From contig NC_087247.1 of NCBI RefSeq assembly GCF_037042905.1, positions 11,354,148 to 11,418,147 on the forward strand: a stretch of 64,000 bases of DNA, given 5' to 3'. The translations under genes were made by a program, and so were the position numbers. Under the pieces are notes generated by a model, which saw only the letters and a program-made list of their open reading frames with translations, had not been told where the DNA came from and ran no database searches. This document shows, piece after piece, positions 3,081 to 59,056 of the stretch (position 1 is the stretch's first letter; every line of letters begins with the position of its first letter). The stretch comes from Lytechinus pictus. Its lineage: Eukaryota.

Positions 3081-6000
3081 CCCAGATCTTCACGACATCC
3101 TGGAGATCAGAAAGGGGGATTACACTTTAACTCTACATTAATTTGAAATTCACTACACAACCACCATTTCTATATGGTTCACCCTTAATCTGTCATTTGT
3201 TGTTTATTCTTAGAAACATATCATATTACTGCGTACAGTATACTAGGCGATGATACGGGAGCAAGGGGTTTTGTTTATCATTCCAGTCTTCGAGTTGTTC
3301 TACATCTTCAGTAGATCGGGTTATAATCTACTGGAACAGCGAACGTTCTTACGGTGGAATTATTCTGGCAACATGAATATCAATGAAAAATGATAATAAA
3401 AAATGTATCGACTCTTTTTGGCCCCAATGTATTGAACACACTCTAGCTTTTCCCCTTGTTATGTTTTATTATCAGAAAGGTCATAATTTGCATTGTAATA
3501 CATATGCCTATAATAAAAGAAAACTTCAAAACGTGAAAGCAGGTTAAGATATCATTTATTAGAAACTTCAACGAATATGGGCTGGAAATAACCATATCAC
3601 TAAATATGTTTAAATGATGAATTCGCTCCTACTAGTTCTACATCTACGTTAGATCTGGATTATCAAAAGTAGCCATTGATAAGAGACTACCAAGATAAAT
3701 ATTTGAATGTTTTCATAATCTACATACAAGCCAATGGACGTGGTTTTCATAAAATAGTATGCGAGTTACGAATGATTTCACGCCAGACTGGTGACCCTTT
3801 CTTTTGCTAAACGATGCATCCAAGTGTGGCTCATTTAGCACCGAAGAACATGTTCCAGTCGTGCGTAAAGTCTTAAGTTAATTCTCGAAAAGCTTTATGG
3901 AACACCCAAAAGGTGTATATGTGTGAGTCATAACTGATGGATTATCTTTCCGTTATAATGCAAACCATTAAGTAAAAATAAATATGCAAGTTTGTGGTGA
4001 CCTGCCGGTTCAATCGGGTTTGCTGATATTATTTTTGACAAGGCAATATTTGGAAAATTTTAGACCAGTCCACCCCCAAACTCCCCCCCCCCCCAATAAT
4101 CAATATAGAAAATGGTCATAATTCCCTTCACCATTCCAAACTATACAGGCCTCTAGGCCTAATGAAACACATGTACAAGCTTCCAATCATCGCTTTCGAT
4201 CGCTTTATTGAAGAAATTACACCCCGTTTATAAATGTCTCCATCTCCCATATATAACTTTTAGATGAATACATGACTTGTGTGTAATTTTCATGATGAGA
4301 ATTTGAGAAGATGCTGGGCTCCAAGCGCTTGGATGACAATTTTGATCTGACACCGGAGTCGTGTTGGAAGTTCAGTCAAAATGGGACCTATGCGTGTAGA
4401 CCTAGGCCACGCGAGAAAAGCAGAAATAGATAGAGGGGACGGGCATTAGGGAGGACTAGAATGACATGGAGGAGAGAAGGAGAGAGTATCAATTATAGAA
4501 GCGATGGCATTAATAAAGGGAGAAGAAATTCAATTAGAAAATACAGCAGGATGGTGGATGGTGTCATAGCCGGGGGAGAAGTATATGTATACCACATTGT
4601 ACCAACACTTATGTTACTTTACAATTTGATTACAAAGTGATAAAAAAAATGTCCAGTTGAAATTTTTTTTGCAGTACTAAGTATAACATCACACCCATGA
4701 AAAACTACACAGAGCCCTTCTTTCGATCTGGACGTCAGGGGTTCGAGACCCCTTAATCAATCATGATGTAAAAGATCTTGACCTTCTGTCTTCAGGTTAA
4801 GAGCTTGGCATGTTGAAACAGATTATCATGATCTGGACTTACATCAGAGAGAGAGAGAGAAAAAAAAGAAATTATGCCCTGCAAAAACGACCATATAGAC
4901 TAATTTGAGATAATCAACGTGGCTACCGTAGAAAAAAACCTTAATAAACCATTATTATTCGCATAATTCTTTGCCCAATCATATTTTAATGTGTTGATAC
5001 CGTTGTAATAGATGAGCATGATATTGAGTCACTGGCGTACCTAGGATTTTCCAGAAGGGGGGCAAATTTTTTGGAGGATATTTCATACCACAAAAAAATT
5101 TGACAAGCAAAAAAAAAAAAAAGTCTTCAACCACAAAATAATAAAGGATTTCTTACCACAAAAAAATTTTAAGGAAAAAAAAAAGGTCTTCAGGTTCAAA
5201 AGACGTATTTTTTTTATCGCATTTCACATTACAAATTATCAGTTGTGACTCGTCAGGGGGGCAGGGATACGTCCCCTGCATGAGTTGTGACTCGTCAGGG
5301 GGCAGTCTACCCCCCCCCCCTTAGGTACGCTAGTGTATTGAGTCCTTTTTATGCTTTCAGAATTAAACATGAAATTTAGAAGACATCCAGTCTGATTAAT
5401 CTAACTGAGGAAATCCGTGATGCATAATACATGTCCTCATAACATAACTGTCATACCATTCTATTTTATTTGGATTCATTCAAATTGAGCGTCTTTTTTT
5501 TTTCTTTTTTCCTAGTGAGCAAATCAAAAATCTAGATATTATTCAATCTTCAAATTAGTTACGAATTTCGCCTATAAATCTAATAAACTTGAGCGTAATT
5601 TTTACAATCAGTCATGACATTAATTACATTAAAAAAAGACAAGTCTGCAGTCTCGTCTGCACTACGCAATTCATACATGTAGTGATACTGTAAATTCGAA
5701 ACTTTTCTCTCTTTTATTTAACATTTGAAAATATAATGCAATAATCCATGGCCACTATTATTGAAAATGTAAATTATTGGTGCCCACTAATGCTGTAATA
5801 AAGAAATGTTCACTAAAGAGGAAATTGCCAAGCCCTAATATTGAATTTAAGGCATGATTATCATTTGATATCTACGAGAAAACATGCATATACACTTGCA
5901 ACATATAAATGGCAGATATTCCTGTACACAATATTATGACAAGTTTCAATGAATAAGGAAATGAATGGCTATGGCCGTTTACTTTTAAAAGTTGTAATCA

Positions 6001-6106
6001 CCAAATACATAAAATAAAGTAATTACTACAAAATCCTTTACAAAACTAATGGTCATAATGTATGCAGTATAATGGAGTATGACCATGATATGTTGAAAAA
6101 TATGTG

Positions 6107-7233
6107 ACAAGTGGAACGCATCTGGCAGTCTCGCCTGTATTACGCGATCCAATTTAGCAGCAGTGCTGACTTTGAAAACAACTATCGAATTATTCACAAA
6201 AACACCATTCATATGATAATATAATATTATGTTCATTGACCCTAAATGACCTTTGACCTTGGTTATGTGACATGACACTCACTCTGCATATTCAGTGATA
6301 TATGATTGCTCTTATGTAAAAGTTTCATGAACTAGATCTATAAACTTTCATAGTTATGATAGCAATTCAACAAATAACCCTAACATGGCCAAAGTTTATT
6401 GAACCTAATAACTTTGACCTTTGCCATGTGATCATAATGTTCAGTGATATACCATTACCCTTATGTCCAAGTTTCATGAACTGGATTCCTAAACTCACGA
6501 CATTTCAAAAACTTAACCTCAGTTAAGATGTTGAATACCACAACATGATATGTTAATTGACTCTAAATGACCTTTGACCTTAGTCCTGTAACCTGAAACT
6601 CCGGCAGGATGTTCAGTAACACTTGATTAATCTTATGTCCAAGTTTCATGAACCAAGTCCGTAAACCTTTTATAGGACAAGTCCACCCCAACAAAAAAAT
6701 GATTTGAATAAGAAGAGAAAAATCCATCAAGCATAACACTAAAATTTTCATCAAAATCGGATGTAAAATAAGAAAGTTATGACATTTTAAAGTTTCGCTT
6801 AATTTCACCAAACAGTTTGTTTAATACTGTATGATTCAGTCAAGTCGGTCCCTATGGTCAAATCTGTAAAAAAATGAAATATTGTATAATTCAAACAATA
6901 AAAAACAAAAGAAAAAGTGAGTGATGGACATCATCGACAGACTAATTTGCATGTCACTGAGTTGTGCATATCACTGTTTTGTGAAAAATAAGCGAAACTT
7001 TAAAATGCCATAATTTTCTTATTTTACATCCGATTTTGATGAAATTTTCAGTGTTATGCTAGTTTGATATTTCTCTATTTATTCAAATCAAAATTTTGCT
7101 GGGGTGGACTTGACCTTTAAGTTATGATATTTCAAAAACTTAACCTTGGTTAAGATTTTAATGTTGACGGCGCCGCCGTCGCAAAAGCGGGGCCTATATA
7201 GTCTCGCTCTGCCATGCAGGCAGGACAAAAATG
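6107..7233 (+). mobile_element. TIR-bounded non-autonomous element carrying an internal satellite-like array. About 14-bp terminal inverted repeats GTCTCGCCTGCAT / ATGCAGGCGAGAC. Internal tandem ~140-170-bp units (..ttcattgaccctaaatgacctttgaccttggt.atgtgac.tgaaactc..). Copy E1 is full length and hosts the nested Harbinger-like MITE.
   Basis: The start ..acaagtggaacgcatctggcaGTCTCGCCTGtattacgcg and the end ..ggcctatatagtctcgctctgccATGCAGGCaGGACaaaaatg are shared by six loci. The internal units are visibly reiterated. Confidence 0.75.
6680..7117. mobile_element. ~440-bp MITE with ~130-bp terminal inverted repeats (GGACAAGTCCACCCCAACAAAAA...). It has a 3-bp TTA target-site duplication, so it is PIF/Harbinger-like. 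Present in duplication copy A only.
   Basis: Copy A reads ..aaacctttta[tagGGACAAGTCC....GGACTTGACCttta]agttatgat. Copy B at about 11375 reads ..aaaccttttaagttataatgat with no element. Related copies lie at 22375..22960 and partially at 28330..28510. Confidence 0.8.
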
Positions 7234-7320
7234 ACATTCTTGTGACACAGTCATGACTGTGTCTGTGTACACACACACACACACGCATTATTATTTTATT
7301 CATTTTCATTTTCTAACAAG

Positions 7321-7475
7321 TGCACATCTAGTTACCAATAATGCATATAGCATTTCCATTTATTTGAAAGCAGGATAAAAGAGCAATGTCTTGCCAACGG
7401 GCATAGGTGCCGCAGCCGGGGATCGAACCCCGGACTTTCCATGTATAGCCAGGCGCCTTAGACCACTCGGCCACG
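7321..7475 (-). mobile_element. tRNA-derived SINE or tRNA pseudogene. The class-II-like head is GGTGCCGTGGCCGAGTGGTCTAAGGCGCC..GGGGTTCGATCCCC..CGGCACC. The tail is ..ATGGAAATGCTATATGCATT. It is duplicated at 11620..11782.
   Basis: Acceptor-like 7-bp stems pair. The D-loop GCCGAGTGGTCTAAGGCG and T-loop GGTTCGATCC are present. I could not form an anticodon stem-loop, so I do not call it a functional tRNA. Confidence 0.5.
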
Positions 7476-9104
7476 GCACCTCCACATACCCACACACCCA
7501 TCCTTACCCACTCACTCCCAGCGTCATACACTTAAATAAATTTAAAAAAAGTGAGTCAATAAGTCAATGTATTATGCCAACGATAAATTATTCATTATTT
7601 TTCAGGGAACTCCTTCCTTCAGTGGGGCTTTTAAAAACGATTATCATATTATTTTTTATATAAAATATACATACATGTATGACCTTGTGGAAACCCAATT
7701 AGCCAACATCCTCTATGATGAAGAACATAAAACATGTAACGGTAAAAGTCGAGCTGGTAACTCAATCTTATCACAATTTCAAAGGATTTGGTTCCATTCG
7801 ACTATTACCAGGTCTTTGAATAATTTCTCCCAACGTCTCTACCAACATTTAAACATTAAAACAGTATCCAATTGCTGACGTCATAAATTAACTTGAGTCG
7901 ATGCAGTTGTGAGTGGATTTGAGGTGTGACAAAACGCACGTACTCCTATTTTAATTTTTATCTACTTGCACAGAAAAAAAAAGAAAAGAAAAACTTAGAC
8001 AAATAAGATTGGTAATGTAATGTGGCAATTAGTTCTGATTATCCCTTTATGATAGTGTTCAATAAAGGATTGACTAAATCTGAAAGACACATTTACAAGG
8101 AAGAGGTCCTATTGCAAATATAATTTCCCCTGCGACTCTTTTGCTGTACTGCACTGCAAAAACACCGGTGTTGATTCAACACCAGCCCGGTATCTAAATT
8201 GTCCACATCAGAGAAGTGTTAAGCAACACCTATTTGATTTTGGTCTAACACTAGATAGGGGTTTATTATACAACACCAATTAGTAAAAACAGCATCGGTT
8301 TGATTCCAAACTGGGTCCCGTAACACAAAGGTTAGCGATTAATCGTAAGCTTGATTTTTACGATTGATTGTACATTGTAGTCAATGGAATCAATCGTAGA
8401 AAAATGTTGGTAAATCGACACTGGAGTTTTTGCATTGTAATTCAAATATTACACCTCCTTTTTTTTGGGGGGGGGGGGGGTAAGGTTACAATATAATCAC
8501 AATGTCTGATTGTTGTGTTTCAGGTCAGTGAAATACCAACTTCTTTGACTTTGTTCCTCTCTCCGTCTGTTCCTCGTATGCCACGCACCCTCATCTAATT
8601 TATTTATAAATAATTGGTAAAATGATTTTTTTTAAATGCCTCTGTCATTGTATGTTTTATGTCTGTATAATCATATCCCGTTTTAAACTGAATGTCATTC
8701 AGCCATTCGGCTATTTTCAGTACATATTTTTTTTCACATAAATCATTGAATAAATAAATAATAAATGAATAAACCAAAATCGGAACATTTATCATCCCGG
8801 TCGAATTTGTCAAATTGACTATTACTGAGTACTTAGATTCGATCCTCTTATTTCAATTAATCATATTCAACAAAGTGATAAAAAAGATTTCCAGTTGAAT
8901 TTTTTTTGCAGTACTAAGTATAACATCACACCCATGAAAAACTACACAGAGCCCCTCTTTCGATCTGGACGTCAGGGGTTCGAGACCCCTTAATCAATCA
9001 TGATGTAAAAGATCTTGACCTTCTGTCTTCAAGTTAAGAGCTTGGCATGTTGAAACAGATTATTATGATCTGGACTTACGTCAGAGAGAGAGAGAGAGCG
9101 AAAA

Positions 9105-10570
9105 AATTATGCCCTGCAAAAACGACCATATAGACCAATTTGAGATAATCAACGTGGCTACCGTAGAAAAAAACCTTCATAAACCATTATTATTCACATA
9201 ATTCTTTGCCCAATCATATTGAGCATGATATTGAGTCACTGGCGTACCTAGGATTTTCCAGAAGGGGGGTAAATTTTTTGGAGGATATTTCATACCACAA
9301 AAAATTGACAAGCAAAAAAAAAAAAAAAGGTCTTCAACCACAAATAAAAGAATTTCGTACCACCAAAAAGAAAAAAAAAAGAAAAAAAAAGGTCTTCAAC
9401 CAAAAAAAGGATTTCTTACCACCAAAAAATTTGACAAGCAAAAAAGAAAAAAAAAAGGTCTTCAGGTTCAAATGACGTCTTTTTTTATTGCATATTTACA
9501 TTACAAATTATTAATTTGGCATCTCAAAATGGGGGGGGGGGGGGGCACGTCCCCTGTATCAGTTGTGACTCGTCAGGGGGGGCAGGGAAACGTCCCCTGC
9601 ATGATTTGTGACTCGTCAGGGGGGCAGTCTGCCCCCCCCCCTTAGGTCCGCTAGTGTATTGAGTCCTTTTTATGCTTTCAGAATTAAACATAAAATTTAG
9701 AAGACATCCAGTCTGATTAATCTAACTGAGGAAATCCGTGATGCATAATACATGTCCTCATAACATAACTGTCATACCATTCTATTTTATTTGGATTCAT
9801 TCAAATTGAGAGTCTTTTTTCCCAGTGAGCAAATCACAAATCTAGATATTATTCAATCTTCAAATTAGTTACGAATTTCGCCTATAAATCTAATAAACTT
9901 GAGCGTAATTTGTACAATCAGCCTTGACATTAATTACATTTAAAAAAAAAGACAAAAGTCTGCAGTCTCGTCTGCACTACGCAATTCATACATGTAGTGA
10001 TACTGTAAATTCGAAACTTTTCTCTCTTTTATTTAACATTTGAAAATATAATGCAATAATCCACGGCCACTATTATTCAAAATGTAAATTATTGGTGCCC
10101 ACTAATGCTGTAATAAAGAAATGTTCACTAAACAGGAAATTGCCAAGCCCTAATATTCAATATTAGGGCTTGGCAATTTCCTGTTTAGTGAACATTTTTT
10201 TTTTCTTTTTTGCTTGTCAAATTTTTTGGTGGTAAGAAATCCTTTTTTTGGTTGAAGACCTTTTTTTTTCTTTTTCTTTTCTTTTTGGTGGTACGAAATT
10301 CTTTTATTTGTGGTTGAAGACCTTTTTTTTTTTTTTTTGCTTGTCAATTTTTTGTGGTATGAAATATCCTCCAAAAAATTTACCCCCCTTCTGGAAAATC
10401 CTAGGTACGCCAGTGACTCAATATCATGCTCAATATGATTGGGCAAAGAATTATGTGAATAATAATGGTTTATGAAGGTTTTTTTCTACGGTAGCCACGT
10501 TGATTATCTCAAATTGGTCTATATGGTCGTAAATATTAAATGATAATCAGGCCTGATTATCATTTAATAT
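9105..10570. repeat. Fold-back inverted duplication in copy B. 10159..10520 is the reverse complement of about 9105..9455 plus 10100..10157. It is joined through a perfect 81-bp palindrome centred at 10158 and closed by a second perfect ~50-bp palindrome at 10521..10570.
   Basis: Identical peptide MPNHIEHDIESLAYLGFSRRGVNFLEDISYHKKLTSKKKKK appears in ORF 9206..9475 (+) and ORF 10150..10446 (-). 10118-10157 is the exact reverse complement of 10159-10198. cgtaaatattaaatgataatcagg|cctgattatcatttaatatttacg is a perfect palindrome. Confidence 0.85.
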
Positions 10571-10805
10571 TTACGAGAAAACATGCATATACACTTGCAA
10601 CATATAAATGGCAGATATTCCTGTACACAATTATGACAAGTTTCAATGAATAAGGAAATGAATGGCTATGGCCGTTTACTTTTTAAAGTTTAATCACCAA
10701 ATACATAAAATAAAGTAATTACTACAAGATCATTTACAAAACTAATGGTCATAATTTATGCAGTATAATGGAGTAGTATGACCATGATATGTTGAAAAAT
10801 ATGTG

Positions 10806-11491
10806 ACAAGTTGAACGCATCTGGCAGTCTCGCCTGCATTACGCGATCCAATTTAGCAGCAGTGCTGACTTTGAAAACAACTATCGAATTATTCACAAAA
10901 ACACCATTCATATGATAATATAATACTATGTTCATTGACCCTAAATGACCTTTTACCTTGGTTATGTGACACGATACTCACTCTGCATGTTCAGTGATAT
11001 ATGATTGCTCTTATGTCAAAGTGTCATGAACTAGATCTATAAACTTTCAAAGTTATGATAGGAATTCAACAAATAACCCTAACATGGCCAAAGTTCATTG
11101 AACCTAATGACCTTTGCCATGTGATCTTATGTTCAGATATATACCATTACCCTTGTGTCCAAGTTTAATGAACTGGATTCATAAAATTTCAAAGTTATGA
11201 CGACATTTCAAAAACTTAACTTCAGTTAAGATTTTGATGTTGATTCCTCGAACATGTTAATTGACCATAATTGTCATTCGACCTTGGTCATGTAACCTGA
11301 AACTCCGGCAGGATGTTCAGTAACACTTGATTAATCTTATATCCAAGTTTCATGAACCAAGTCCGTAAACCTTTTAAGTTATAATGATATTTCAAAAACT
11401 TAACCTTGGTTAAGATTTTAATGTTGACGGCGCGCCGTCGCAAAAGCGGGGCCTATATAGTCTCGATCTGCTATGCAGGCGAGACAAAAAT
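10806..11491 (+). mobile_element. Same TIR/satellite element family, copy E2. Paralogue of E1 in duplication copy B, without the nested MITE.
   Basis: Start ..ttgaacgcatctggcagtctcgcctgcattacgcg. End ..tagtctcgatctgctatgcaggcgagacaaaaatg. Confidence 0.75.
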
Positions 11492-11619
11492 GACATTCAT
11501 GTGTGTGTACAATTAAAAAAAAATGAAAATAATAATAATGTGTGTGTGTGCATACACACAAATTATTATCTTTATGATAATTTTTTTTAAACAAGTGCAC
11601 ATCTACATGTAGTTACCAA

Positions 11620-11782
11620 TAATGCATATAGCATTTCCATTTACAGTATTTGAAAGCAGGATAAAAGAGCATTGTTGATTACGTGCCTTGCTCATGGACA
11701 TAGGTGCCGCGGCCGGGGATCGAACCCCGGACTTTCCATGTATAGCTAGGCGCCTTAGACCACTCGGCCACGGCACCTCCAC
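11620..11782 (-). mobile_element. Paralogous copy of the 7321-7475 tRNA-like SINE, within duplication copy B.
   Basis: Near-identical sequence ..ggtgccgcggccggggatcgaaccccggactttccatgtatagctaggcgccttagaccactcggccacggcacctcc. Confidence 0.5.
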
Positions 11783-12558
11783 ATAATCAGACACCCACCC
11801 TTACCCACTCACTCCCACCGTCATACACTTAAATAAATAAAATGAAAAAAATGAAAGTCAATAAGTCAATGTATTTATGCCAACGATCATTTATTCATTA
11901 TTTTTCAGGGGACTCCTTTCTGCATTGGGGCTTTTAAAAACGATGATTATATAATTTTTATATAAAATATACCCATGACTTTGTGGAAACCCAATTAGCC
12001 AGCTTCCTCTAGAATGAAGAACATAAAACATGTAACGGTAAAAGTCGAGCTGGTAACTCAATCTTATCACAATTTCAAAGGATTTGGTTCCATTCGACTA
12101 TTACCAGGTCTTTGAATAATTTCTCCCGTCTCTACCAACATTTAAACATTAAAACAGTATCCAATTGCTGACGTCATAAGTGAACTTGAGTGGATGTAGT
12201 GGTAGACTTGAGCGGATTTGAGGAGTGACAAAACCGCACGTACTCCTATTTTGATTTTTATCTACTTGCACTAAAAAAAGACAGAAAAGAAAACTTAGAC
12301 AAATAAGATTGGTAATGTAATGTGGCAATTAGTTCTGATTATCCCTTTATGATAGTGTTCAATAAAGGATTGACTAAATCTGAAAGACACATTTACAAGG
12401 AAGAGGTCCTATTGCAAATATTTCCCCTGCGACTCTATTGGTGTACTACACTGCAAAAACACCGGTGTTGATTCAACACCAGCGCGGTATCTAAATTGTC
12501 CACATCAGAGAAGTGTTAAGCAACACCTATTTGATTTTGGTCTAACACTAGATAGGGG

Positions 12559-12792
12559 TCTAAGTTCATTGACCCTAAATGACCTTGGTCATGTGACATG
12601 AAACTCATGCAGGATGTTCAGTGATACTTGATTAACCTTATGGCCAAGTTTCATGAACTAGGTCCATATACTTTCTAAGTTATGCTGTCATTTCAAAAAC
12701 TTAACATTCGGTTAAGATTTGGTGTTGACGCCGCCGCCGTCGGAAAAGCGACGCCTATAGTCTCACTCTGCTATGCAGGTGAGACAAAAATG
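12559..12792 (+). mobile_element. Same family, copy E3: 5'-truncated, with one internal unit plus the 3' terminus.
   Basis: ..gttcattgaccctaaatgaccttggtcatgtgacatgaaactc...gttgacgccgccgccgtcggaaaagcgacgcctatagtctcactctgctatgcaggtgagacaaaaatg. Confidence 0.7.
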
Positions 12793-15640
12793 AAAAAAAG
12801 AAGAAAACAGAAGAAATGAAGAAAAAAAAACAACTGAACAAAAGAGACTTACGCATATTTTTCACAACTATAATGCTGCTTTATTCTATTTTATAAACTT
12901 GGAAGAGATAACACTTGAAAAAAGTAAATGCACAATACATGATCAATCAAGGTATTTATTTAGAAGTTACAATATGCTTAATATCATATACATATGCACT
13001 GATCCTCGAATAAGCAAAGACTTTGTGGATTTCACTAATACTTCTTTTCAAATTAAGAATTTCTTTTCGTTCATACCATATTCTTTAAAATGATGCAAGT
13101 GTTGAGAGAAATTTTAAAATTCATGATTCAGTATACATTCCCCCTGAACAGGCATATTTTCCTCTCCATGAATAATGCATAAACCAAACAAAAAATTTTA
13201 AACCCAAATGAAATAAAACATGATTTATAATGGTAGTATTGTTTATTATTCCGCAATTCAAATACAATGCGTCCTTACTAACAGTGTTCTGTTTACTCAT
13301 TATATTTTGGGACTTGAAAATACCAATGAGAATATGATTTCATTTATGTTGTTTGATTACACTTAAATGCGTCTAAATACATCAAAAAAGGTAAATCCAA
13401 ACTAGAATACAAATAATTTTTTTCTCGTGGTCAAATTTTGCTCTTTTTTTTGGGGGGGGGGGGGGACGGTTGTCACAAGATTAAGTCCTTGATACATGCC
13501 TTCTCATCCTATTCATTTTACCAACAAAAAAGTGGCAAAATTTAATTTGAAAATTTATCGTACACCTGCTGAGCATAATGTTTCCATCTATTTCTACATT
13601 TGCCGATGGCTAACTATGTAAAAAAAATTCCAACAAAAGAAGCGGGGAAATTACACAATTCATTATACACCTGCTCAACAAAATGTCTCCATCTGATTCT
13701 CGCTGATTCTCGATTGCCCATGGCCGAATATGTTTCTCATAAATAGGTTTCATTGTGAATTCATATTCATGGAGCCTGGAGAGACAAAAAGAAACCACAT
13801 CAGAGGGGAGCTTTTCATCAACATTTTTGTCCGACAAGTAGTCAGATCTGACATCTTTCCTTGATTCTGATTTGCTGAAAGGCATTGTTGCTATGGTAAC
13901 TGTCGGTTTAAATGGTATTTGTCGGATAAAACGTCTGACAAATCCCTTCGTGAAACGCTACCCAGGTGTTGGAGTAATACACGGGGGGAAAACAGGAAGA
14001 GGCATTTGTCTGAAAAATAAAAAGCTTTTAATTTTTCTCTTGGACACACAAGCAATAGTTGTGATGTATAAATTACTGAGTTTGTAAATGGTTAAATGCA
14101 TAGCAAGAGTGAGGAAAAGATGCATAATATGCAGTGAAATATGGAGTAAGAATTTGGTTTACAAGCCAGACGGCACATAATAAATCTTTAACATTTCACC
14201 TTGATTGAAAATCCCAGTAAGAATAAACTTTATAATTCTTTTGTTAAAAAACCCCCATTGTTTTGGTCCTATCCACACCCCCTTTCACCAACGAGCAGCA
14301 TAAGCATTCCCAGATATAGATAAAAATCATTTAATATAACTGTTGATACTGGTATTTACAATGTCCATAGTATACTAAAATTTTCTAGTTAAATTAGATT
14401 TACATTTATCGACGAAGGAAAAGTAGGCAGGCAGTCTTTCATGTTTATATACAGATGATGAGATTTTTTTAGCCTTAATTATTGTAACTTCCATTGAAAC
14501 TTTGATGGTGATTGGATGACGAGTCCTGTTACCGTGGACGGTAGCTGCCACGATGGCAAAGTTATAGAGTACCGAACTGTGAGGTCATCAATTTTCACTT
14601 TTTGCATATGATCAGCACTTTTGATACCATATTTGGGTAGAGCATGATGAAAAAAAAAAACCACTACCAAAATTTGGTGGGAATCGGTCCATGGGGCCAC
14701 AAGATATGACCTCGTAAATACATAATTAGCCCAATTGAAGTCAATGTATTATTGGCCTGGTTCCTGACATTTAGAACCAGGCCAGTAATACACCAATAAC
14801 ACGCTGAAATGCTTTTAAAACAATTTGTGACGTCATTACTTCGGTACTTATGGTTGTGACTCTTTACGGAACGGACGCCTGATTATCCAATGTTAAGGTT
14901 TGGTAGGATGTCTTAAACAAAATGAACAAAGATCTTTATCAGCCACTGCTAACATATTTTTCTGAACTAGCATAGCATCGGTATATAAATAATGATGATG
15001 ATGGCATAATTCGATTAATAGCATTCTTTCCCTTCTAAATGTATTTACAATCCCGGCAAAACATGCAAACCAAACAAATCAAATAGTAATTTACTTGGAA
15101 AAGTGAGGGAGGGCCATTGATTCTTTGACCGGTGTTATTACATTTGCCATTTCTGGTATTTAACAAAATATCTTTATCATTCTCTTATCTTATCTTTCAT
15201 CAGTTCTTATGTATCTCTTTCTTTCAGCTATTCTTCCATCAATAATGTATTTCCTTGTTTTTCTTTCTTTCAACTTCCCTTTAAATTTTTCACTAATTTG
15301 CATTACAGTGCAACAAGTGTGTAGCAATAAAAAGAGATCATGCAAATTGTATGAGATATTTCTACTGCGCGTAAATCCACTGGACGAAGATGACTACGTC
15401 TATATGCCAAGGTTATCAGATGAATCAATACACCCCTTTCCTACGCTAAAGCAGTGATGATGTCACGAAGAAAATTTGCAGCCTTACATAATTGACTGCT
15501 TGATTCTGAAGAATATGTAATCTACTCATATCATTAAAATGTCTGTATAAAACATATAATGCACAGGGTCAAGTTTGTGACATTCGTGGCTCTGATGCAA
15601 GCATTTCTGATTATATAATTTTCCTCTCATTTTTACATCG

Positions 15641-16639: not shown

Positions 16640-16932
16640 CTCTTAACCTTGGTTACGATTTCGATATTGATTCCCCCAACATGGTCTAAGTTCATTGACC
16701 CTAAATGACCTTTGACCTTAGTCATGTGACCTGAAACTCAGGCAGGATGTTCAGTAATACTTGATTACCCTTATGTCCAAGTTTCATGAACTAGGTCCAT
16801 ATATACTTTCTAAGTTATGAGGACATTTCAAAAACTTTAACCTTGGTTAAGATTTCAATGTTGACGACACCGCCGCCGCCGTCGGAAAATCGGCGCCTGT
16901 AGTCTCGCTCTGCTATGCAGGCGAGACAAAAA
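16640..16932 (+). mobile_element. Same family, copy E4: 5'-truncated, abutting a MITE at 16545-16640.
   Basis: ..catggtctaagttcattgaccctaaatgacctttgacc...gtcggaaaatcggcgcctgtagtctcgctctgctatgcaggcgagacaaaaag. Confidence 0.7.
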
Positions 16933-23168: not shown

Positions 23169-23803
23169 TTTGTCTCGCCTGCATAGCAGAGCGAGACTAT
23201 AGGCGCCACTTCTCTATGACGGCAGCGGCATCAACATTGAGATCTTTTGTGAAATTTTTGAAATGTCTTCATAACTTAGAAAGTATATGAACCTAGTTCA
23301 TGAAATTTTGGGTCTTCAATTAACAAGGAATTTCCTGCCTGAGTTTCAGGTCACATGGCCAAGATCAAAGGTCATTTAGGCTTAGGGTCAACTTAGACCA
23401 TGTTGGGTAAATAAACATCAAATCTTAACCAAGATTAAGTTTTTGAAATGTCATCATAACTTTGAAAGTTTATCATTCATGGATCGAGATCATGAAACAT
23501 AGACATACACTGTAAGAGCAATCAAGTATCAGTTAACATCCTGCCTGAGTTTCAGGTCACATGACCAAGGTCAAAGCTCATTTAAGGTCAATGAACTTTG
23601 GCCATGGCATGTTGGGGTATTTTTTGAATTGCCATTATAACTTTGAAAGTTTATGGATCCTTTTCATGAAACGTTACGGCCTTAGTATCACTGATCGTTT
23701 AGCACTAGTCTTAGGTCACATGATCAAGGTCAAATTCGGCATTGCTGCTATAATGAATCGAATGATGCAGGCAAGACTACCAGAGGAGTTCCACTTGTTT
23801 ACT
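23169..23803 (-). mobile_element. Same family, copy E5 in inverted orientation.
   Basis: 23169 tttttgtctcgcctgcatagcagagcgagactataggcgcc is the reverse complement of the 3' terminus. 23770-23803 ..gcaggcaagactaccagaggagttccacttgt is the reverse complement of the 5' terminus. Internal units lie between. Confidence 0.7.
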
Positions 23804-39890: not shown

Positions 39891-42231
39891 TTGCAGCAAC
39901 TAGTATGATGAACTAAGTGACTTGATAATGACCTCATTTAATATGTTAAGAGCATGGTGCATATGCTCCTCACCAGAAAATTACACGAAAACATGCAAGT
40001 CAGGTACAAGTGTACGGAAAATTCAAATTTGGCAATGAGCTGCAAATTTGGCAATTGGAAGCATTTTTTTTTTCAATTTCACAAAATAACAGGAAAGCAG
40101 TTTAACCTGTGCCAAACTACAGAAATGAGATAAAATGAGGTGGTGTAATATCCAATTTCGCAGCTCTTAACAGTAAACATGATAATTTGCACTCATGCAA
40201 ACATTCTGGAAAGTAGGAGCAATGCGAACAAACCCATAAATCTCGGGAGAACAAACATGACACATTAGAAACCATGGCAAAGACATGAAGCGACACAACT
40301 GTTTCAAAGCTCTGTTAACCTTCCTGCTATTTCCCCCTCCCGGGTTGTATTGACTGTAACAAGCAAGGACACATCCTGTGGTTTGATGGAGAAGGGATGG
40401 GAGGGGGGGGGGTAGTGGTATGGAGAAGGGCAATAACATGTGATAAACACTTGTGTCATGTGACCTATGAATGAACTTCTAATGCAAGAGCCAATGTGCT
40501 CTTCCTGTGCGTGACCGAGTTTTGTTTGCAATGTGGTACACACATACATGAATCAGGGAGCTGTTTACTCACAGCATGTTATTAGTTCAGGCTAGGTCAA
40601 AGCACCTCTATCATCCCCCCCCCCCCCATTCTCCGAGGTCTTGAACTTTTAACATAAGCTACTGGACTACTCCCCTGCCCCCAGTACGGGTACTCCCACA
40701 CAACATCAAAAGTACATAGCGCTTGTAAGAAGATGATAGCTTGCCAAAAGCATAATAGGTAGACTTGGATTTGAAATAATTTAATTTCCTGTTGCTTTCA
40801 TTGGGTGGTATGTTGTTTTGTAGCAGTGACCCAGAGGAGAGTATAATGCTTAAAGAAGGTTGTTTTTGCAAAGAGAATGACAATGTTTCAGTGAGGTGGG
40901 GGGGGGGGAGTTTTCAAAAAAAAAAATCTATATCCGACTTTAAAGATAAATGCCAGTTCGTACAGAGTCCAATAAAATGACCACCTAAGCGTCCGAAAGC
41001 GCCCAAAGGATTCTGCAAGATATTGTGTAATTGCAGAGAAATAAGTGAGAAAAATAAAGCACAATATTCCAGCCATCTGGCGGGTATTTTCCCCAAGCAT
41101 TATCAATACACTGTCCCACATGTGCTTATCTTTGCTGGCAATCTACAGCATGATCATTTTTCAGCTTAGATTTCAGCATTTTACAAAATTCAGTCAATGT
41201 AAATGTAACAGACCTAGATCCACGATGACAAAGTGACAATTAATCTTGGTCTCACTGAATATCTTGTGAAATCGGTGTTTACTGCAACAACTTTCAATAA
41301 TCCTTAACTACATGTAGTCCTACTGTATATACAAATTGACACATGCACAGAACTGAACTTAATGCAATCAGGTATAGCCTACCAAGCCTAGCACCTGAGA
41401 AAGAATGAATAATTACTAGATAGGCCCTCAAAACAATTTTTTCCCTTAAAAAATAATATTCCCAAACTCTCCTGTGATTCACTCTCCCTGATGATGATCA
41501 TCTGTCAGATCAACAAGATTTTATGACAAGAAAGTTGACCTTCTAAAAAGGAGAAACTCCCTCACGTGTCTGGGGCAGGCATGACACATTGGACATCACA
41601 TGACTCAAGAAGAAGACGTATCACGTGAGATCTGAAGCATGTGACCTCGCCAAGGAAATAAGCCCTTCTTCATTGGGAATGTGTATTTCAACCATTGGAT
41701 TTGAGTTGTGCCTTGATCTAAGTATATATCCTAATTATATTATGGCTTCCCTCCTTTCTAAATCATGCCCAAAAAAGAAATTTTGAAACTGGATAAACAA
41801 AAGGTTGAAGTAGGGAAAGTGTGGGGGATGCAAAACTGGCAATCAATCCATAGTCTTTTTTCTTGCAACAGAAAGTACGTTTCTATAATTCAAAGAATTA
41901 TCAATTGCAAATTTGCAATTGATATTTGCAACTGACTGGGAACTTATTGCCAACAAAACCCATGAATATACTGCTTAAAGTTTGCTTTATAGAGTTGGAT
42001 CATGGCCTTAGTTAAAACAGAATACTGGCCACAGACGTAATTGTTCTATTATACACAAGTTGACAAGAATGTCATGCTTTTCTGGGAGAGTTTTATAATG
42101 ACAACTGTTACAAGCTACTGAAATTCTATCTTATCTGACTGGACGAGAATAAATATTTAGTCAATGAAAGTCACTGAATATTTTCTTTAAATATCATTTC
42201 CCTGGTACTCATTTTGGTTTTCGCCCTTCAA

Positions 42232-42915
42232 CCTACATTTGGTCCTGTGGTCAGCGGATCTTCAATCAATTTTAGTCTTTGTTCCACCCCCTCCCCGATA
42301 CCTCCCAAATCCTCATTACAATTGATCTTACCCTTGTTTCTACATCCGTCCATTCACCGCTGTACTGCTCAGGGGGGCGTTTCATGAAAGGACTTGTCGG
42401 ACGTTTTATCTGACAAGTCCCATTTTATCCAACAGTTACCATAGGAACAGTGCCTCTCAGCCAATCAAAATCATGGAAAGATGTCAGATCTGACAACTTG
42501 TCGGATGAAAATATTGATGAAACGCTCCCCTGGGTCATCTTCAACCCTCCGTTTGGTCCTCATGATGGCTGTGGTCAGTGGATCTTCGGTTAATCATGGC
42601 CCTTGTGCCACCCCCTCCCAAACCCATCCCCAATCCCCATTACAATTTATTTTACCCTTGTTTCTACATCCGTCCATTCACCGCTGTACTGCTCAGGGTC
42701 GTCTTCAACCCTAAGTTTGGTCCTCATGGCGGATGTGGTCAGCGGATCTTCAATCAATCTTGCTCTTTGTGCCACCCCCTCCCCGATACCTCCCCAATCC
42801 ACATTACAATTTATCTTACCCTTGTTTCTACATCCGTCCATTCACCGCTGTACTGCTCGGGGTCGTCTTCAACCCTCCGTTTGGTCCTCGTGGTCGTCAG
42901 TGGATCTTCGGACTT
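42232..42915 (-). repeat. Tandem array of about four ~161-bp units. Each unit is a copy of the 3' ~100 bp of the KIF23 terminal coding exon, including the TAA stop, plus ~60 bp of 3' flank. One unit is interrupted by a MITE.
   Basis: Direct repeats of ..tctacatccgtccattcaccgctgtactgctc(a/g)ggg tcgtcttcaaccct..ggtcctc(a/g)tgg..gtcag(c/t)ggatcttc.. at about 42232-42357, 42536-42697, 42698-42858 and 42859-42915. Minus-strand ORF 42647..42841 repeats ..RVEDDPEQYSGEWTDVETRVK*. Confidence 0.85.
42358..42535. mobile_element. MITE inserted inside one unit of the KIF23 3' tandem array. TIR GGGG(G)CGTTTCATGAAAG ... CATCAATGAAACGCTCCCC.
   Basis: Terminal inverted repeats are visible. The insertion interrupts the otherwise collinear repeat unit between ..gctcaggg and gggtcatcttcaaccc... 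It is related to the copy at about 13600-13700. Confidence 0.7.
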
Positions 42916-44520: not shown

Positions 44521-44794
44521 CTACAATCATGTGTAGATGAAGGAAAGTGGTTTAAGAGCCTCTATAAAACTTTGGTAAAAGTTCAATAATGTGAGATATA
44601 TTCCAGTATCATCTTACGTATAGTGTTGTGGCTGAGTGGATGAGTCTCTGGACTTAGAACCACATGGTCCGGGGTCGATTCTGAGTGGATAAGTCTCTGG
44701 ACTTAGAACCATATGGTCCAGGGTCGATTCTGAGTGGATAAGTCTCTGGTCCACCAAGGCACTAACATACTTAATCTGCATTTGCCACAATCCA

Positions 44795-44950: not shown

Positions 44951-46546
44951 GTAGTAAATTGCAGTTAAATCGCAAAATACATCCACTTGTATACATTCTA
45001 CATTTACTTTTAGGATAGACACTTTCATGTAATGTAATAATAAACTGGTAGATTGCTCAACACCTTTTTGAGAATTACCTAATCTCAAGAGAGGCTTTTA
45101 AGCTAAACTCAAGTATCTGTAGTGTGCAGTGAAGTCTTTAAAATCAAGGTTAAGTTTTATCACGATATCATCATGGCTCTAGATCAAGTAAGTTCCCATC
45201 TAGTTTGCACATGAAATATTGAAATGAATATCGAAATCTAGGCAGGAAATGAAGTATGCTGAAAATTGCCATCAGATGTAAGCTCACAGGGGGTCTGTAG
45301 TACTTTCTCAAAGAAAAACAAAGCATAACATGTGTATTCCAGTAAAATTTCATGCTTATCTTAGGAATTATGGAGCACTCAATTACCCCTATTCTATCAA
45401 AGTTATTTAGCACATAATTGAATTGAATTTATTGAATTTCCACAATCGAAATAAAAGTGTACAAAGTAAGCATTTTATAATGCAGTGGAGGAGATAACAA
45501 AAGTAAAATTACTTATCTAGGTTATCCCCTTACAAAACAACAAGTACACATAAAACATATAAAATTATACATTTCAATGTAATACAGCAAAAAAATCACT
45601 AAGTAAATAATTTACAATTAAACATAATCATGTATATACTCACACAAACACACACACACACCCACGCACACACTTACACTTTATACACATGCAGGAAAAT
45701 CCTATCTCTTATCGCGCTGTAACAAAAAGTGCCTATATCTCCTTTTGAATGAGTTCAATGTTGGTTTTTCTCTTATAATTACTTCAATATTGTTCCAAAT
45801 TTCTGGACCTTTAAAGAAAATAGAAAATTTTGAGCTGTTTGTTCTTGTTTGGGGAAAATGATAATTTTTTTAATTATACAAAGCACTCTGGTAAAGGACC
45901 TGGGCCCCGTTCATAAAAAGATGCTATGATAGTAACTCTTGCTGGAATGTCAAATTTCGTTGGAAGAGCCAATCAGGAAACAGAATTTTCACTGTTGTCA
46001 TGGGAGTTGACATTCTAGCTATCATAGCAACTCTTCATGAAATAGGGCCCTAGAGGGGTGTTTCACAAAGAGTTAAATATGACTTAGAGGGTGTTGCATG
46101 AAAATATTTGCAATCGATTGCAAATATTCTGCTGCAATTTTACAATTGATAGATCAAGTTTTAGCAAATCAGATTGCTCTGCTCGTTTCAAGGAGCTGAT
46201 TAGATATCAATTGCAAATTTGCAATTAATCGCAAGACATTATGATTGATTTAGGGACCAAAAATAGACTTGTATTTGATCGCAAGTTTCTTGCAACGCCC
46301 CATTGAACTCATGGTTAAATGCTGACACACATTCTGTGTACCAATCTTAATGATTGGTACGAAGTAGCGCACATCCTAACTACGAATGTAAGTTTGACTT
46401 TTAATCACATTTAAAATCTTTGTGAAACATTCCCCTTGGTAAACTGTACATTTTCTTTTTCATTGCAAAATAGAGATGTCTTACAGATATATCAGTACAT
46501 TTACTCTCATATCCTCCATTGAAAATTGATGACCAGCTAATACTCA

Positions 46547-46699: not shown

Positions 46700-48150
46700 T
46701 TTTTTTTTTTTTGCAGGATTTTCTGCATTTATTGGAATATATACAAAACAAATTTACAATGCTTGAGACATAATCATAATATAGCATAAAGTACATAACC
46801 AAGTGACAATCTTATATGTAGTGACTGGAGAAAGACATAAATACAATATATAAAAAATATATATAATAAGTAAAATGCAGAGGCAAACTATATAAGCAAA
46901 TATATGCTTGAAGCATAGCAGCCAAAAAAGGGAAGGGCTACATGGAGACCTAAGAAATTAATTGTGTCTGTAAGAAAAAAAAAATTAATGTCACGAATCA
47001 TCAAATAACGGGGAAAAAAGTAGAAATTGACAAATGAAGTGTGTGCTAGTGAGTGCTAGTGGGTGCAAGTGCAGGTGAGAGATTTATGAATATCTGGATA
47101 AAATATATTTTTTCAATGAAGCTTTAAAAGAAAAGACAGATGCAGTGAGTTTAATATGATTTGGTATGTTGTTCCATATATCTGGGCCGTGGTGTCTAAT
47201 TGTTTTCTGTGCTAAAATTATTTTCGGGTTTGTCAAATGAAAGTCTGATGAGTGACGTGTAGGATATGAATGAATGTCGCTATTGTAGGTAAACATGTTT
47301 TGAAAGGATGTAGGTATAGCATTGGTTGAGAATTTGTACATAAAAATGGCAGATTGTAAAGTATGGATATCGTTCATTTTCAACGTTTTGAGTTTCCGAA
47401 AAATGGGATCAGAGTGAGCTAAATATTGCGAATGGGTGCAAATACGGAGTGCCTTTTTTTGAAGGCGCAGAATTGAATCTATTTTTGTTTTATTGCTATT
47501 ACCCCACAATATATTGCAATATGAAATATGTGATAAATATGTGACAACATAAATAGTGATCTTTGGGAAAGACAATATTTGAGTTTATATAATATACCAA
47601 TACCTCTGGCAACTAGTGTGCTAACATTATGAATGTGGCTGTTCCAAGTTAAATTAGAATCGATTATTACCCCTAAAAATTTTGTATCTTGTTTTTCAAT
47701 GAGACTGATGTTATTAATTTGAATGGAACCACGAAATGTATGTTTAGAATTAAGGTGTTTAAAGTATATGAAATTTGTTTTGTTAATGTTTAACAAAACA
47801 ATTTGATACATACGCAAGTGATCTTTGTCTTTTTTCTAAGTTTCTCCTAGAATATAAATATAGGGAGATTCATGCTGCAGTAAATACATGTTGGCGTTTT
47901 CATGATAATGGGTGTGATGCTTTTCTTCTCGTTTAGCATTCCCGGATGAATAAAGGTTAAAGGTCACAAGATCAATCGCAGGATATCCCTGATATGTGAT
48001 ATCATAACATTGATAACTAGATTGATTCATGACTGCGGACAGTTTATGCCCCTGCCATTGCCAGCCTGAGAATGTATTACACACTTTTAATAACTGTTCA
48101 AATACTCCAATTGGAGTATTCAAGCATTGAGCAGCTACGTCACTCATGCA
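46700..48150 (-). mobile_element. 5'-truncated non-LTR retrotransposon (CR1/L2-like LINE): RT C-terminal fragment plus 3' tail, in the KIF23 intron between the 48.6 kb and 46.6 kb exons.
   Basis: Minus-strand ORFs 47479..47817 and 47084..47575 carry LINE RT C-terminal signatures. These include LGVIIDSNLTWNSHI, ..YCNILWGNSNKTKIDSILRLQKKALRICT..AHSDPIFRKLKTLKM, and a CR1-like ..FKASLKKYILSRYS* end. An A-rich tail follows at about 46700-46716 on the minus strand. Confidence 0.7.
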
Positions 48151-48646
48151 TACCTGCCAACCTTTGATAATAGAAATTCAGTATCAAAGCTACGAGAGCA
48201 CGGTGCCCCAGAGTGGGGGGGGGGGGAGAATTTTGAAATCACAATTAGAAATGTGTATTAGATATTGCACATGATGATAATGGCGCTGGCCCCCTAAATT
48301 TGTTTACTCGCCGGCAACAACCTGGCTTTGTCCTTTTTTCTGTACCACATGTATGCAAAAACAAAACAAATGAAGGGTTGGCAATCGCTATGAGCTCTGT
48401 TAGACGATATGCACTAGTGTTGCATAACCGTGTGCTCCAGCTGATTAATACTTCGTTATGAGTTAGTTTCATACTATTCAGAATTCAGAATTGGAGTTCA
48501 AAAATCAGAAAAATTACGCCCAAATGGGAATAGTTGGCAGATATGCTCATAGAATTACACCACAGTGAATTCAGGGGCTTAAATTTTGTATGACTGTATC
48601 CTATATGACAGATTAAAAAAAAATAAAAACCCCAATATGCTCTCAC

Positions 48647-48855
48647 CTCTGTAGCCATCTCTCGTTTGTCTTTCTCGTACATGTTGTGAGTGCGTTGCAG
48701 CATGGCGTTGTCCTGTTCCAGAGAACGGATGCGTTTCTCGTTCCGCTCATTTTCGCGGGTCTTAGAGTTCAGTTTGGCTGAAAGCTCTGAGACGGTGGTG
48801 CGGAGATGATCCAACTCGTGCTCTCTTTCAACCAGCATTGCCCGGAAAGCGCCCT
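48647..48855 (-). CDS. KIF23: KIF23 exon: (Q)GAFRAMLVEREHELDHLRTTVSELSAKLNSKTRENERNEKRIRSLEQDNAMLQRTHNMYEKDKREMATE. Coiled-coil stalk.
   Basis: Acceptor ttttacacacag|AGGGCG; donor TACAGAG|gtgagagc. Heptad-rich E/K/R/L composition. Matches the ORF-track entry 48485..48838. Confidence 0.8.
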
Positions 48856-57875: not shown

Positions 57876-59056
57876 AACAAGTGGAACGCCTCTGGCAGTC
57901 TCGCCTGCATTACGCGATTTAATATAGCAGCAGTGCTAACTTTGAAAACTACTATTAAATAATCATTCACAAAAACACCATTCATATAATGACATAATAC
58001 CACGTTCATTGACCATAAATGACATTTGAACGGTGACTTAAGACTTGTCAACTACACCCATGTCCACACTTCATTCACTCTATCCATAAACTTTCAAAGT
58101 TATGATGGCAATTCAACAATTACCCTTACATGGCCTAAGTTTATTGACCTTAACTGACCTTTGAACTTGGTTTTGTGACCTGAAACTCACAGGGGATGTT
58201 CAGTGATACTTGATTACTCTTATATCCCAAGTTGTATGAACTAGATCCATAAACTTTCAGAGTTAGGATGGTAATTCAACAAATACCCCTAACACGGCCA
58301 AAGTTCATTGACGTTTAATGACCTTTGACCATGGTCATGTGACCTGAAACTTGTACAGGATGCTCAGTGATACTTGATTACTCTTATGTCCAAGTTTTAT
58401 GAACTAGATCCATAAACTTTCAGAGTTAGGATGGTAATTTAACAAATATCCCCAACACGGCCAAAGTTCATTGACCTTAAATGACCATTGACCATGGTCA
58501 TGTGACCTGAAACTCGCACAGGATATTCAGTGGTACTTGATTAATCTTATGTCCAAGTTTCATGAAAAAGATCCATAAATTTTCAAAGTTATGATAGTAA
58601 TTCAACAAATACCCCCAACTTGACCAAAGTTCATTGACCCAAAATGACCTTTGACCTTGGTCACGTGACCTGAATCTCAAGCAGGATGTTCAGTAATACT
58701 TGATTAACCTTAAGCTCAAGTTTCATGAACTAGGTCCATATACTTTCTAAGTTATGATGTCATTTCAAAAACTTAACCTTCGATTAAAATTTTGAAAATA
58801 ATTCTCCCAACATGGTCTAAGTTCATTGACCCTAAATGACCTTTGACCTTGGTCATGTGACCTGAAACTCAGGCAGGATATTCAGTAATACTTGATTAAG
58901 CTTATGTCCAAGTTTCATGAACTAGGTCCATATACTTTCTAAGTTATGATGTAATTTCAAAAACTTAACCTTAGGTTAAGATTTGATGTTGACGCCGCCG
59001 CCGGCGTCGGAAAAGCGGCGCCTATAGTCTCGCTCTGCTATGCAGGCGAGACAAAA
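57876..59056 (+). mobile_element. Same family, copy E6: full length with about six internal units, located in a KIF23 intron.
   Basis: Start ..acaagtggaacgcctctggcagtctcgcctgcattacgcg. End ..cgcctatagtctcgctctgctatgcaggcgagacaaaaactgg. ORF-track peptides 57866..58051 and 5985..6278 are homologous. Confidence 0.75.

Follow-up and report, generated by a model that had tools for sequence, protein, structure and literature searches.

Genes and repeats around the locus

We analysed a stretch of 64,000 nt from Lytechinus pictus (GCF_037042905.1, NC_087247.1 positions 11,354,148–11,418,147, forward strand), referred to below as the window. It has the look of animal nuclear DNA: its GC content is about 36%, just 15 of its open reading frames (ORFs) reach at least 110 amino acids, and neither tRNA nor Rfam matches were found in the 64 kb. 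Motor-domain exons of a kinesin-6 (KIF23/MKLP1-like), with the motif VPYRTSKLT, lie on the minus strand between 52309 and 61656; the best database matches of the concatenated exons are 72–78% identical and come from various invertebrates. A coiled-coil-like ORF on the same strand (48485–48838) may be a further KIF23-like exon. Two overlapping minus-strand ORFs of 163 and 112 amino acids (47084–47817), with the motifs FLGVIIDSNLTWNSHI and YCNILWG, bear what we take to be a resemblance to the C-terminal region of non-LTR retrotransposon ORF2. Four larger ORFs from other parts of the window, among them those at 47084–47817, had no Pfam match.

A dispersed repeat family with a unit of about 150–190 bp forms a tandem array of four to five copies at 58082–58984, with further monomers at 6255–6729, 10926–11433, 12557–12793, 16642–16932 and 23513–23669 (minus strand). 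Single units or short arrays are present inside both copies of the duplication described below as well as elsewhere in the window, and the family looks like a satellite or an internal repeat of a transposon. Other tandem repeats were found at 42532–42893 (164-bp period, 2.2 copies, 87% matches) and 44632–44749 (49-bp period, 2.4 copies, 95% matches).

A rearranged patch in one copy of a segmental duplication

The locus of interest lies in a non-coding segmental duplication, whose two copies (A and B, Table 1) differ by 6.8% substitutions over 3121 aligned nt and by a handful of indels. In both copies lies a MITE-like element (5030–5335 in copy A, about 306 bp; 9237–9656 in copy B, about 420 bp), which is therefore older than the duplication. 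It has imperfect terminal inverted repeats (CACTGGCGTACCTAGG / CACTAGCGGACCTAAGG), and exact direct repeats of 8 bp (TATTGAGT) border it on both sides, a target-site duplication (TSD) length that we take to be a hallmark of hAT transposons. Inside the element are A-rich tandem repeats of about 60-bp period (9287–9464) and 43-bp repeats with G-runs and C-runs (9533–9624), which are able to form GC hairpins. An insertion of 444 bp is found in copy A only (6680–7123), the corresponding empty site in copy B being at approximately 11375–11384 (AACCTTTTAAGTT). It carries inverted arms of about 143 nt (6670–6812 / 6978–7120) that are 86% complementary, its termini are GGACAAGTCCACCCC / GGGGTGGACTTGACC, and TTA/TTTA may represent a target duplication; we read the insertion as a probable second MITE that arrived after the segmental duplication.

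Collinear BLAST blocks (B 9557–10169 to A 5237–5853, and B 10549–11185 to A 5850–6493) show that copy B follows copy A through 10161 and then again from 10549, which corresponds to A 5850. Between these points copy B holds a patch of 387 nt (10162–10548) in place of the trinucleotide TTA of copy A, a net gain of 384 nt; these 3 nt are the minimum missing from the copy B target relative to copy A. The empty site of copy A already contains inverted repeats of 3 nt, namely ATT.AAT and, given the A>C change in copy B, AGG beside CCT. We also inspected the other indels of at least 6 nt between A and B, and inverted local templating was found in none of the 12; a general proneness of the locus to such events is thus unsupported.

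Table 1. Coordinates of the duplication, the patch and its parts (positions in the window; rc, reverse complement).
Feature	Position	Strand	Length or sequence	Basis or remark
Segmental duplication, copy A	4632–8262		~4 kb	non-coding
Segmental duplication, copy B	8870–12559		~4 kb	non-coding
Copy A empty site	5837–5856	+	AATATT-G-AAT-TTA-AGG-CATG; AATATTGAATTTAAGGCATG	
A-like collinear allele without the patch			AATATTGAATTTAAGGCCTG; also given as AATATTGAATTTAAGGCCTGATT	
Segment a, template of the long filler	9122–9456	+		BLAST against 10530–10195, 99.4%; three-way alignment
Segment c, native left flank and left arm of palindrome 1	10119–10157	+		homologous to A 5804–5842
Palindrome 1	10119–10197		79 bp (39+1+39)	exact; odd, centre C10158
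Tract 1 (c')	10158–10197	+		rc(10119–10157 + native G known from copy A)
Joint 1	10159–10161		AAT, 3 nt	equally native (copy A GAAT)
Joint 2	10195–10197		TTT, 3 nt (5/6 if extended)	overlap of tracts 1 and 2
Tract 2 (a')	10195–10530	+	335–338 nt	rc(9122–9456), 99.4% identity
Joint 3	10527–10530		TCGT, 4 nt	overlap of tracts 2 and 3
Palindrome 2	10527–10576		50 bp	exact; spacer 0 (10551/10552)
Tract 3 (d')	10527–10551	+		rc(10552–10576); left arm of palindrome 2
Joint 4	10549–10551		AGG, 3 nt	copy A likewise AAGG
Segment d, native right flank and right arm of palindrome 2	10552–10576	+		collinear with copy A
Junction-specific k-mers of the patch			AATATTCAATATTAGGG, GGTCGTAAATATTAAATG	
Further junction k-mers of the patch			AATATTCAATATTAGGGC, GAACATTTTTTTTTTCTTTTTTGC, ATATGGTCGTAAATATTAAATG, GATAATCAGGCCTGATTATC	

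Two exact palindromes at the ends of the patch

An exhaustive scan of the window for perfect palindromes returned the two listed in Table 1, followed by palindromes of 26 bp. In dinucleotide-preserving shuffles of the window (n = 60), the longest perfect palindrome had a mean length of 18.3 bp and a maximum of 23 bp. The spacers between the inverted arms are extremely short, with 1 nt (10158) in palindrome 1 and 0 nt in palindrome 2. Folded as single-stranded DNA, palindrome 1 reaches −44.4 kcal/mol (z = −16.5) and palindrome 2 −20.4 kcal/mol (z = −11.0); the homologous site of copy A gives −2.1 kcal/mol, on par with shuffled sequence. An earlier note on this DNA had reported an exact palindrome of 81 bp at 10118–10198 and another of about 50 bp at 10521–10570. 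Exactness was confirmed for both, but the first is 79 bp long, with 10118 (G) and 10198 (T) unpaired, and the second, which does measure 50 bp, lies at 10527–10576. Its statement that both palindromes are absent from copy A was borne out at the homologous site (5837–5856). The argument that such palindromes are unstable seems to us overstated for lengths of 79 and 50 bp, given the length thresholds that have been reported.

The two perfect 26-bp palindromes are found at 41899–41924 and 46103–46128 (TATCAATTGCAAATTTGCAATTGATA and AATATTTGCAATCGATTGCAAATATT). Both centre on TTGCAA, their surroundings hold more TTGCAA(C/T) motifs, and their length is just above the shuffle maximum of 23 bp. They may belong to a repeat family or represent a recurring motif that resembles a binding site.

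Three inverted tracts and four microhomologous joints

All 387 inserted nucleotides are templated at most 1.05 kb away, on copy B itself, and the patch resolves into three reverse-complement tracts, rc(10119–10158), rc(9122–9456) and rc(10552–10576). The source of the long tract, about 700 nt upstream, comprises 115 bp of unique flank and the left 220 bp of the hAT-like MITE, including its A-rich array of ~60-bp repeats; it thus cuts across the boundary of the MITE, and its ends do not coincide with transposon ends. Tract 2 differs from this source by a C for T at 10276 and by one extra T in a T-run at approximately 10323–10338. Inverted re-insertion of upstream sequence had been proposed before, as a single piece of about 360 bp. 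We confirmed the inversion, but the copied piece (10195–10530, the reverse complement of 9122–9456) is somewhat shorter, at 335–338 nt, and it is one of three inverted pieces, with microhomology at every joint and a loss of 3 target nt.

The path can be rebuilt as native sequence up to 10157, rc(10119–10157 + G), rc(9122–9453), rc(10552–10572) and native sequence again from 10552, that is, with four switches. This path reproduces the 521 nt from 10100 to 10620 with only two differences, the substitution at 10276 and the length of the T-run. The chance of finding at least 3 nt of microhomology at a random forward-to-inverted joint in this region is P = 0.07, and for all four joints together about 2.4e-5. 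The presence of microhomology at 4/4 joints points to priming by a polymerase and not to blunt ligation. In ancestral coordinates, the first and the last turning points are merely 3–10 nt apart.

The patch was copied from copy B and is young

To place the patch relative to the duplication, we compared the filler with its source and with copy A. In 222 unambiguously aligned columns, the filler matches the copy B source at all six B-specific substitutions, and it also carries the 28-bp deletion of copy B, indicating that it was copied from copy B after the divergence of A and B. Filler and source differ by one substitution in about 335 nt, as against 6.8% between A and B, so that the duplication is older than the patch by a factor of ten or more; an age of zero would even be possible if both differences were errors of synthesis. 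On the sequence evidence, the patch is best read as the product of a single recent mutational event in copy B. These results fit the earlier suggestion of either a very recent event or an artefact, the filler being 99.4% identical to its source against the A/B divergence of 6.8%.

Two opposing 3' ends as the probable origin of the patch

Taken together, we consider it probable that the patch arose in a single recent event of microhomology-primed template switching, in which two opposing 3' ends at one lesion copied in trans. Two opposing ends at one lesion are suggested by turning points only 3–10 nt apart, and by the fact that each flank bears a fold-back of itself. The earlier note had favoured a template-switch or hairpin error over transposition, and this agrees with the local source, the lack of a TSD, the loss of TTA and the microhomology at 4/4 joints. 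Between the two mechanisms that it named, template switching accounts well for the data, whereas a self-hairpin or a single fold-back is less fitting for spacer-less centres, four switches and three tracts.

We infer the following order of steps. The ancestral site would have read ...CCCTAATATT-G-AAT-TTA-AGG-CCTGATT..., and the lesion, a double-strand break with two ends or else a pair of stalled forks that converged, would have produced two 3' ends in opposition. On the left, the top-strand 3' end (...ATT) would have paired with AAT just downstream on a same-sense strand, provided by the sister chromatid or by the lagging-strand template, and copied 40 nt backwards (G to C, then c'), thereby creating the 79-bp palindrome. 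After dissociation, it would have re-annealed by TTT/AAA about 660 nt farther upstream, where synthesis of another 335 nt (a') would have followed. On the right, the bottom-strand 3' end would have made a mirror-image turn at the natural AGGCCT palindrome, with 22–25 nt of copying giving rise to the 50-bp palindrome. Finally, the extended ends could have paired via TCGT/ACGA (...GGTCGT-3' with ...TTTACGA-3') and been sealed, with loss of TTA. In an equivalent variant, the 335-nt tract would have been made by the right end.

We favour copying in trans, from a sister chromatid or a lagging-strand template, over a self-hairpin because the spacers are just 1 and 0 nt. Copy A has a G at the position of C10158, the centre of palindrome 1; the two bases are complementary, as expected if copying began at that G after annealing of ATT with AAT. 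This reading assumes that ancestral copy B had the G; an independent G>C change at 10158 is possible instead, given the 6.8% divergence. Hairpin loops require approximately 4–6 unpaired bases (PMC7999016), and the spacer between the arms that an intramolecular snap-back loop would need, some 3–6 nt or more, is absent from both palindromes. A possible variant of the snap-back would use a stem of 1–2 bp closing a loop made of the natural palindrome itself. As for the enzyme, synthesis could be of the Pol theta-type SD-MMEJ or of the MMBIR/FoSTeS kind. The length of the 335-nt tract, more than ten times that of a typical POLQ insert, makes TMEJ alone a forced explanation, and a polymerase of the MMBIR type may be required. 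We saw no evidence of function for the product, which is probably a neutral scar in non-coding DNA.

Alternative explanations

The closest rival is one-ended FoSTeS/MMBIR proper, in which one nascent 3' end makes four serial switches: a stalled or collapsed fork would take the opposite template at 10158, jump to 9456, jump to 10576 and return at 10552. Judged from the assembled sequence, a two-ended break and such a serial switch would give the same product, and the rival overlaps with our main explanation; the strictly one-ended version alone is credible but on the unlikely side. The three inverted tracts, all from the same strand and in the same direction, with microhomology of 3–4 nt at every switch, are in line with it, as are tract lengths of tens to hundreds of nt, which suit MMBIR over POLQ, and leading-to-lagging switches at short inverted repeats have been shown experimentally (PMC10766183). 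However, the end would have to land 25 nt past the stall and then turn within 3–10 nt of its point of departure, which would be a coincidence, and the fork switches described in yeast involve interrupted repeats with a span of about 40–80 bp (PMC10766183) instead of spacers of 0–1 nt. An in-vitro or assembly artefact is a poorer candidate still, and we hold it to be rather improbable. Here the patch would be a chimera made by a strand-displacing or repair polymerase, for example during whole-genome amplification or library end-repair, or by a gap-closing or consensus step. Perfect palindrome arms and a near-perfect filler fit zero age, the patch structure rests on one assembly, and chimeras from multiple displacement amplification (MDA) are 85% inverted, mostly join sites less than 10 kb apart and show at least 2 nt of complementarity at 77% of joints (PMC1855051). 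Every joint of the patch bears a close likeness to these and, taken singly, could have formed in vitro. Yet such chimeras occur about once per 10–22 kb (PMC1855051), as compared with four joints in 420 nt here. An exact return to collinearity with 3 nt lost is unexpected from one displaced 3' end, no in-vitro step joins two ends, and an error in a single read is normally outvoted in the consensus. Furthermore, the filler bears a true substitution (10276) besides the homopolymer difference, and the rest of the window is free of other long palindromes or fold-backs. Database searches for the rearranged allele gave no exact record of the ORFs unique to it (10150–10446, minus, and 10540–10653, plus), and none was found for the two flanking native ORFs either, in collections whose best KIF23 match was just 72–78% identical. 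A homology search with the chimeric 98-amino-acid ORF found no match, and the native left flank had 0 matches in metagenome contigs. Short-read contigs would tend to break at inverted exact repeats.

Readings that involve a transposon are less probable again. In the footprint of a hairpin-forming cut-and-paste element (hAT, Transib or RAG-like), excision hairpins on both flanks would be nicked far off-centre to give long 'P-nucleotide' palindromes, and the filler would be captured in joining. Spacer-less palindromic self-copies on both flanks are what a hairpin model predicts, and the hAT-like MITE with its 8-bp TSD 500 bp upstream indicates that such elements were once active in this genome. 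Against this, the site shows no trace of an 8-bp target duplication, 3 target nt are gone, and there is no sign that any element was ever present. A covalent hairpin at a flush end could not yield the odd centre, complementary to the base in copy A. With arms of 39 and 25 nt, the palindromes far exceed any excision footprint known to us, and we regard this origin as very unlikely. We give hardly any credence to the insertion of a foldback-type or long-TIR element, or to an ancestral structure later deleted from copy A. The 335-nt inverted pair (9122–9456 and 10195–10530) superficially resembles long terminal inverted repeats, but every inserted base is local copy B sequence with nothing foreign in it, and the source segment is not bounded by element ends. 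Neither a target-site duplication nor a flanking direct repeat was detected around the patch, and no additional copy of it was present in the 64-kb window. Transposon insertion was therefore rejected on these grounds, as was an ancestral structure lost from copy A, since the filler is B-specific and about 20 times less diverged than A is from B.

Discussion

If real, the patch offers an unusually readable natural record of a multi-step template-switch mutation, with copy A as an internal outgroup from which the ancestral state can be read at every base. All four joints would be resolved, and their geometry would argue for two opposing 3' ends and templating in trans. Cases of this kind help to calibrate models of complex germline mutation, which are now limited to a single switch and return, and they illustrate that long perfect hairpins and 335-bp inverted repeats can arise in one step. 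In practical terms, the site will confuse aligners and variant callers and needs validation at the level of reads. More speculatively, and with little confidence, mirrored spacer-less fold-backs 3 nt apart together with a long filler could be the germline record of a rarely documented repair route, in which converging forks or both ends of a break might prime on the same-sense strand of the sister, for instance after an interstrand crosslink. If this were true and the region were transcribed, the perfect hairpin with its 39-bp stem could seed a new hairpin or small-RNA locus, for which it would be a candidate. The origin of miRNAs by template switching offers a comparison (PMC10710096).

Several known systems share features with the patch. 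Chimeras from MDA and other strand-displacement reactions (PMC1855051) likewise join nearby segments in inverted orientation on short complementarity, although they normally contain single joints, about one per 10–22 kb, and do not go back to the template they left. Fold-back inverted duplications and ODIRA (PMC3907307, PMC10766183) also turn at short inverted repeats, of 2–8 (or 2–14) nt, and leave a palindromic junction. Human fold-backs, however, always keep a single-copy spacer of 766 bp–70 kb and end in terminal deletions or dicentrics (PMC3907307), and ODIRA uses interrupted repeats spanning about 40–80 bp and produces a triplication (PMC10766183), whereas copy B has spacers of 1 and 0 nt and the chromosome keeps its collinearity. 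We looked for a forward-inverted-forward triplication at the locus and found no segment present three times; the last turn (10552) is on the right-hand side of the first (10158), and the outcome is hence an insertion and not a triplication.

The four-point template-switch model, like Ripley's quasi-palindrome correction, involves a switch to the opposite strand and a return, by which perfect inverted repeats form in one step, and its cases were detected, as ours was with copies A and B, by comparing close sequences (PMC5453318). That model was applied to primate genomes and describes a single switch and return, with multi-round events explicitly left out (PMC5453318); the patch differs in having three inverted fragments and four switches. 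With POLQ end joining and SD-MMEJ (PMC2943611, PMC5068794) it shares a small deletion with an insert copied in reverse complement from the flanks, repeated rounds of priming, extension and dissociation, a final annealing on short microhomology and occasional misincorporation. Most POLQ inserts are shorter than 25 bp, their templates usually lie no more than 10 bp from the break, and snap-backs are a minority (PMC5068794). The tracts in copy B measure 40, 335 and 25 nt: the first and the last begin right at the break, in keeping with this pattern, that of 335 nt, from 700 nt away, falls outside it, and spacers of 0–1 nt argue against intramolecular snap-back. MMBIR/FoSTeS, finally, has in common with the patch its serial switches on 2–5 nt of microhomology, its nearby and often inverted tracts of tens to hundreds of nt and its error-prone synthesis. 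The patch departs from that class in its tiny scale (387 bp, with sources at most 1.05 kb away), in producing an insertion with a 3-nt loss instead of a change in copy number, and in the two mirror-image fold-backs that face each other at one site. The event calls for neither a new mechanism nor a new element, and we assign it to the MMBIR/FoSTeS or SD-MMEJ class as a clean example of an ordinary kind of event.
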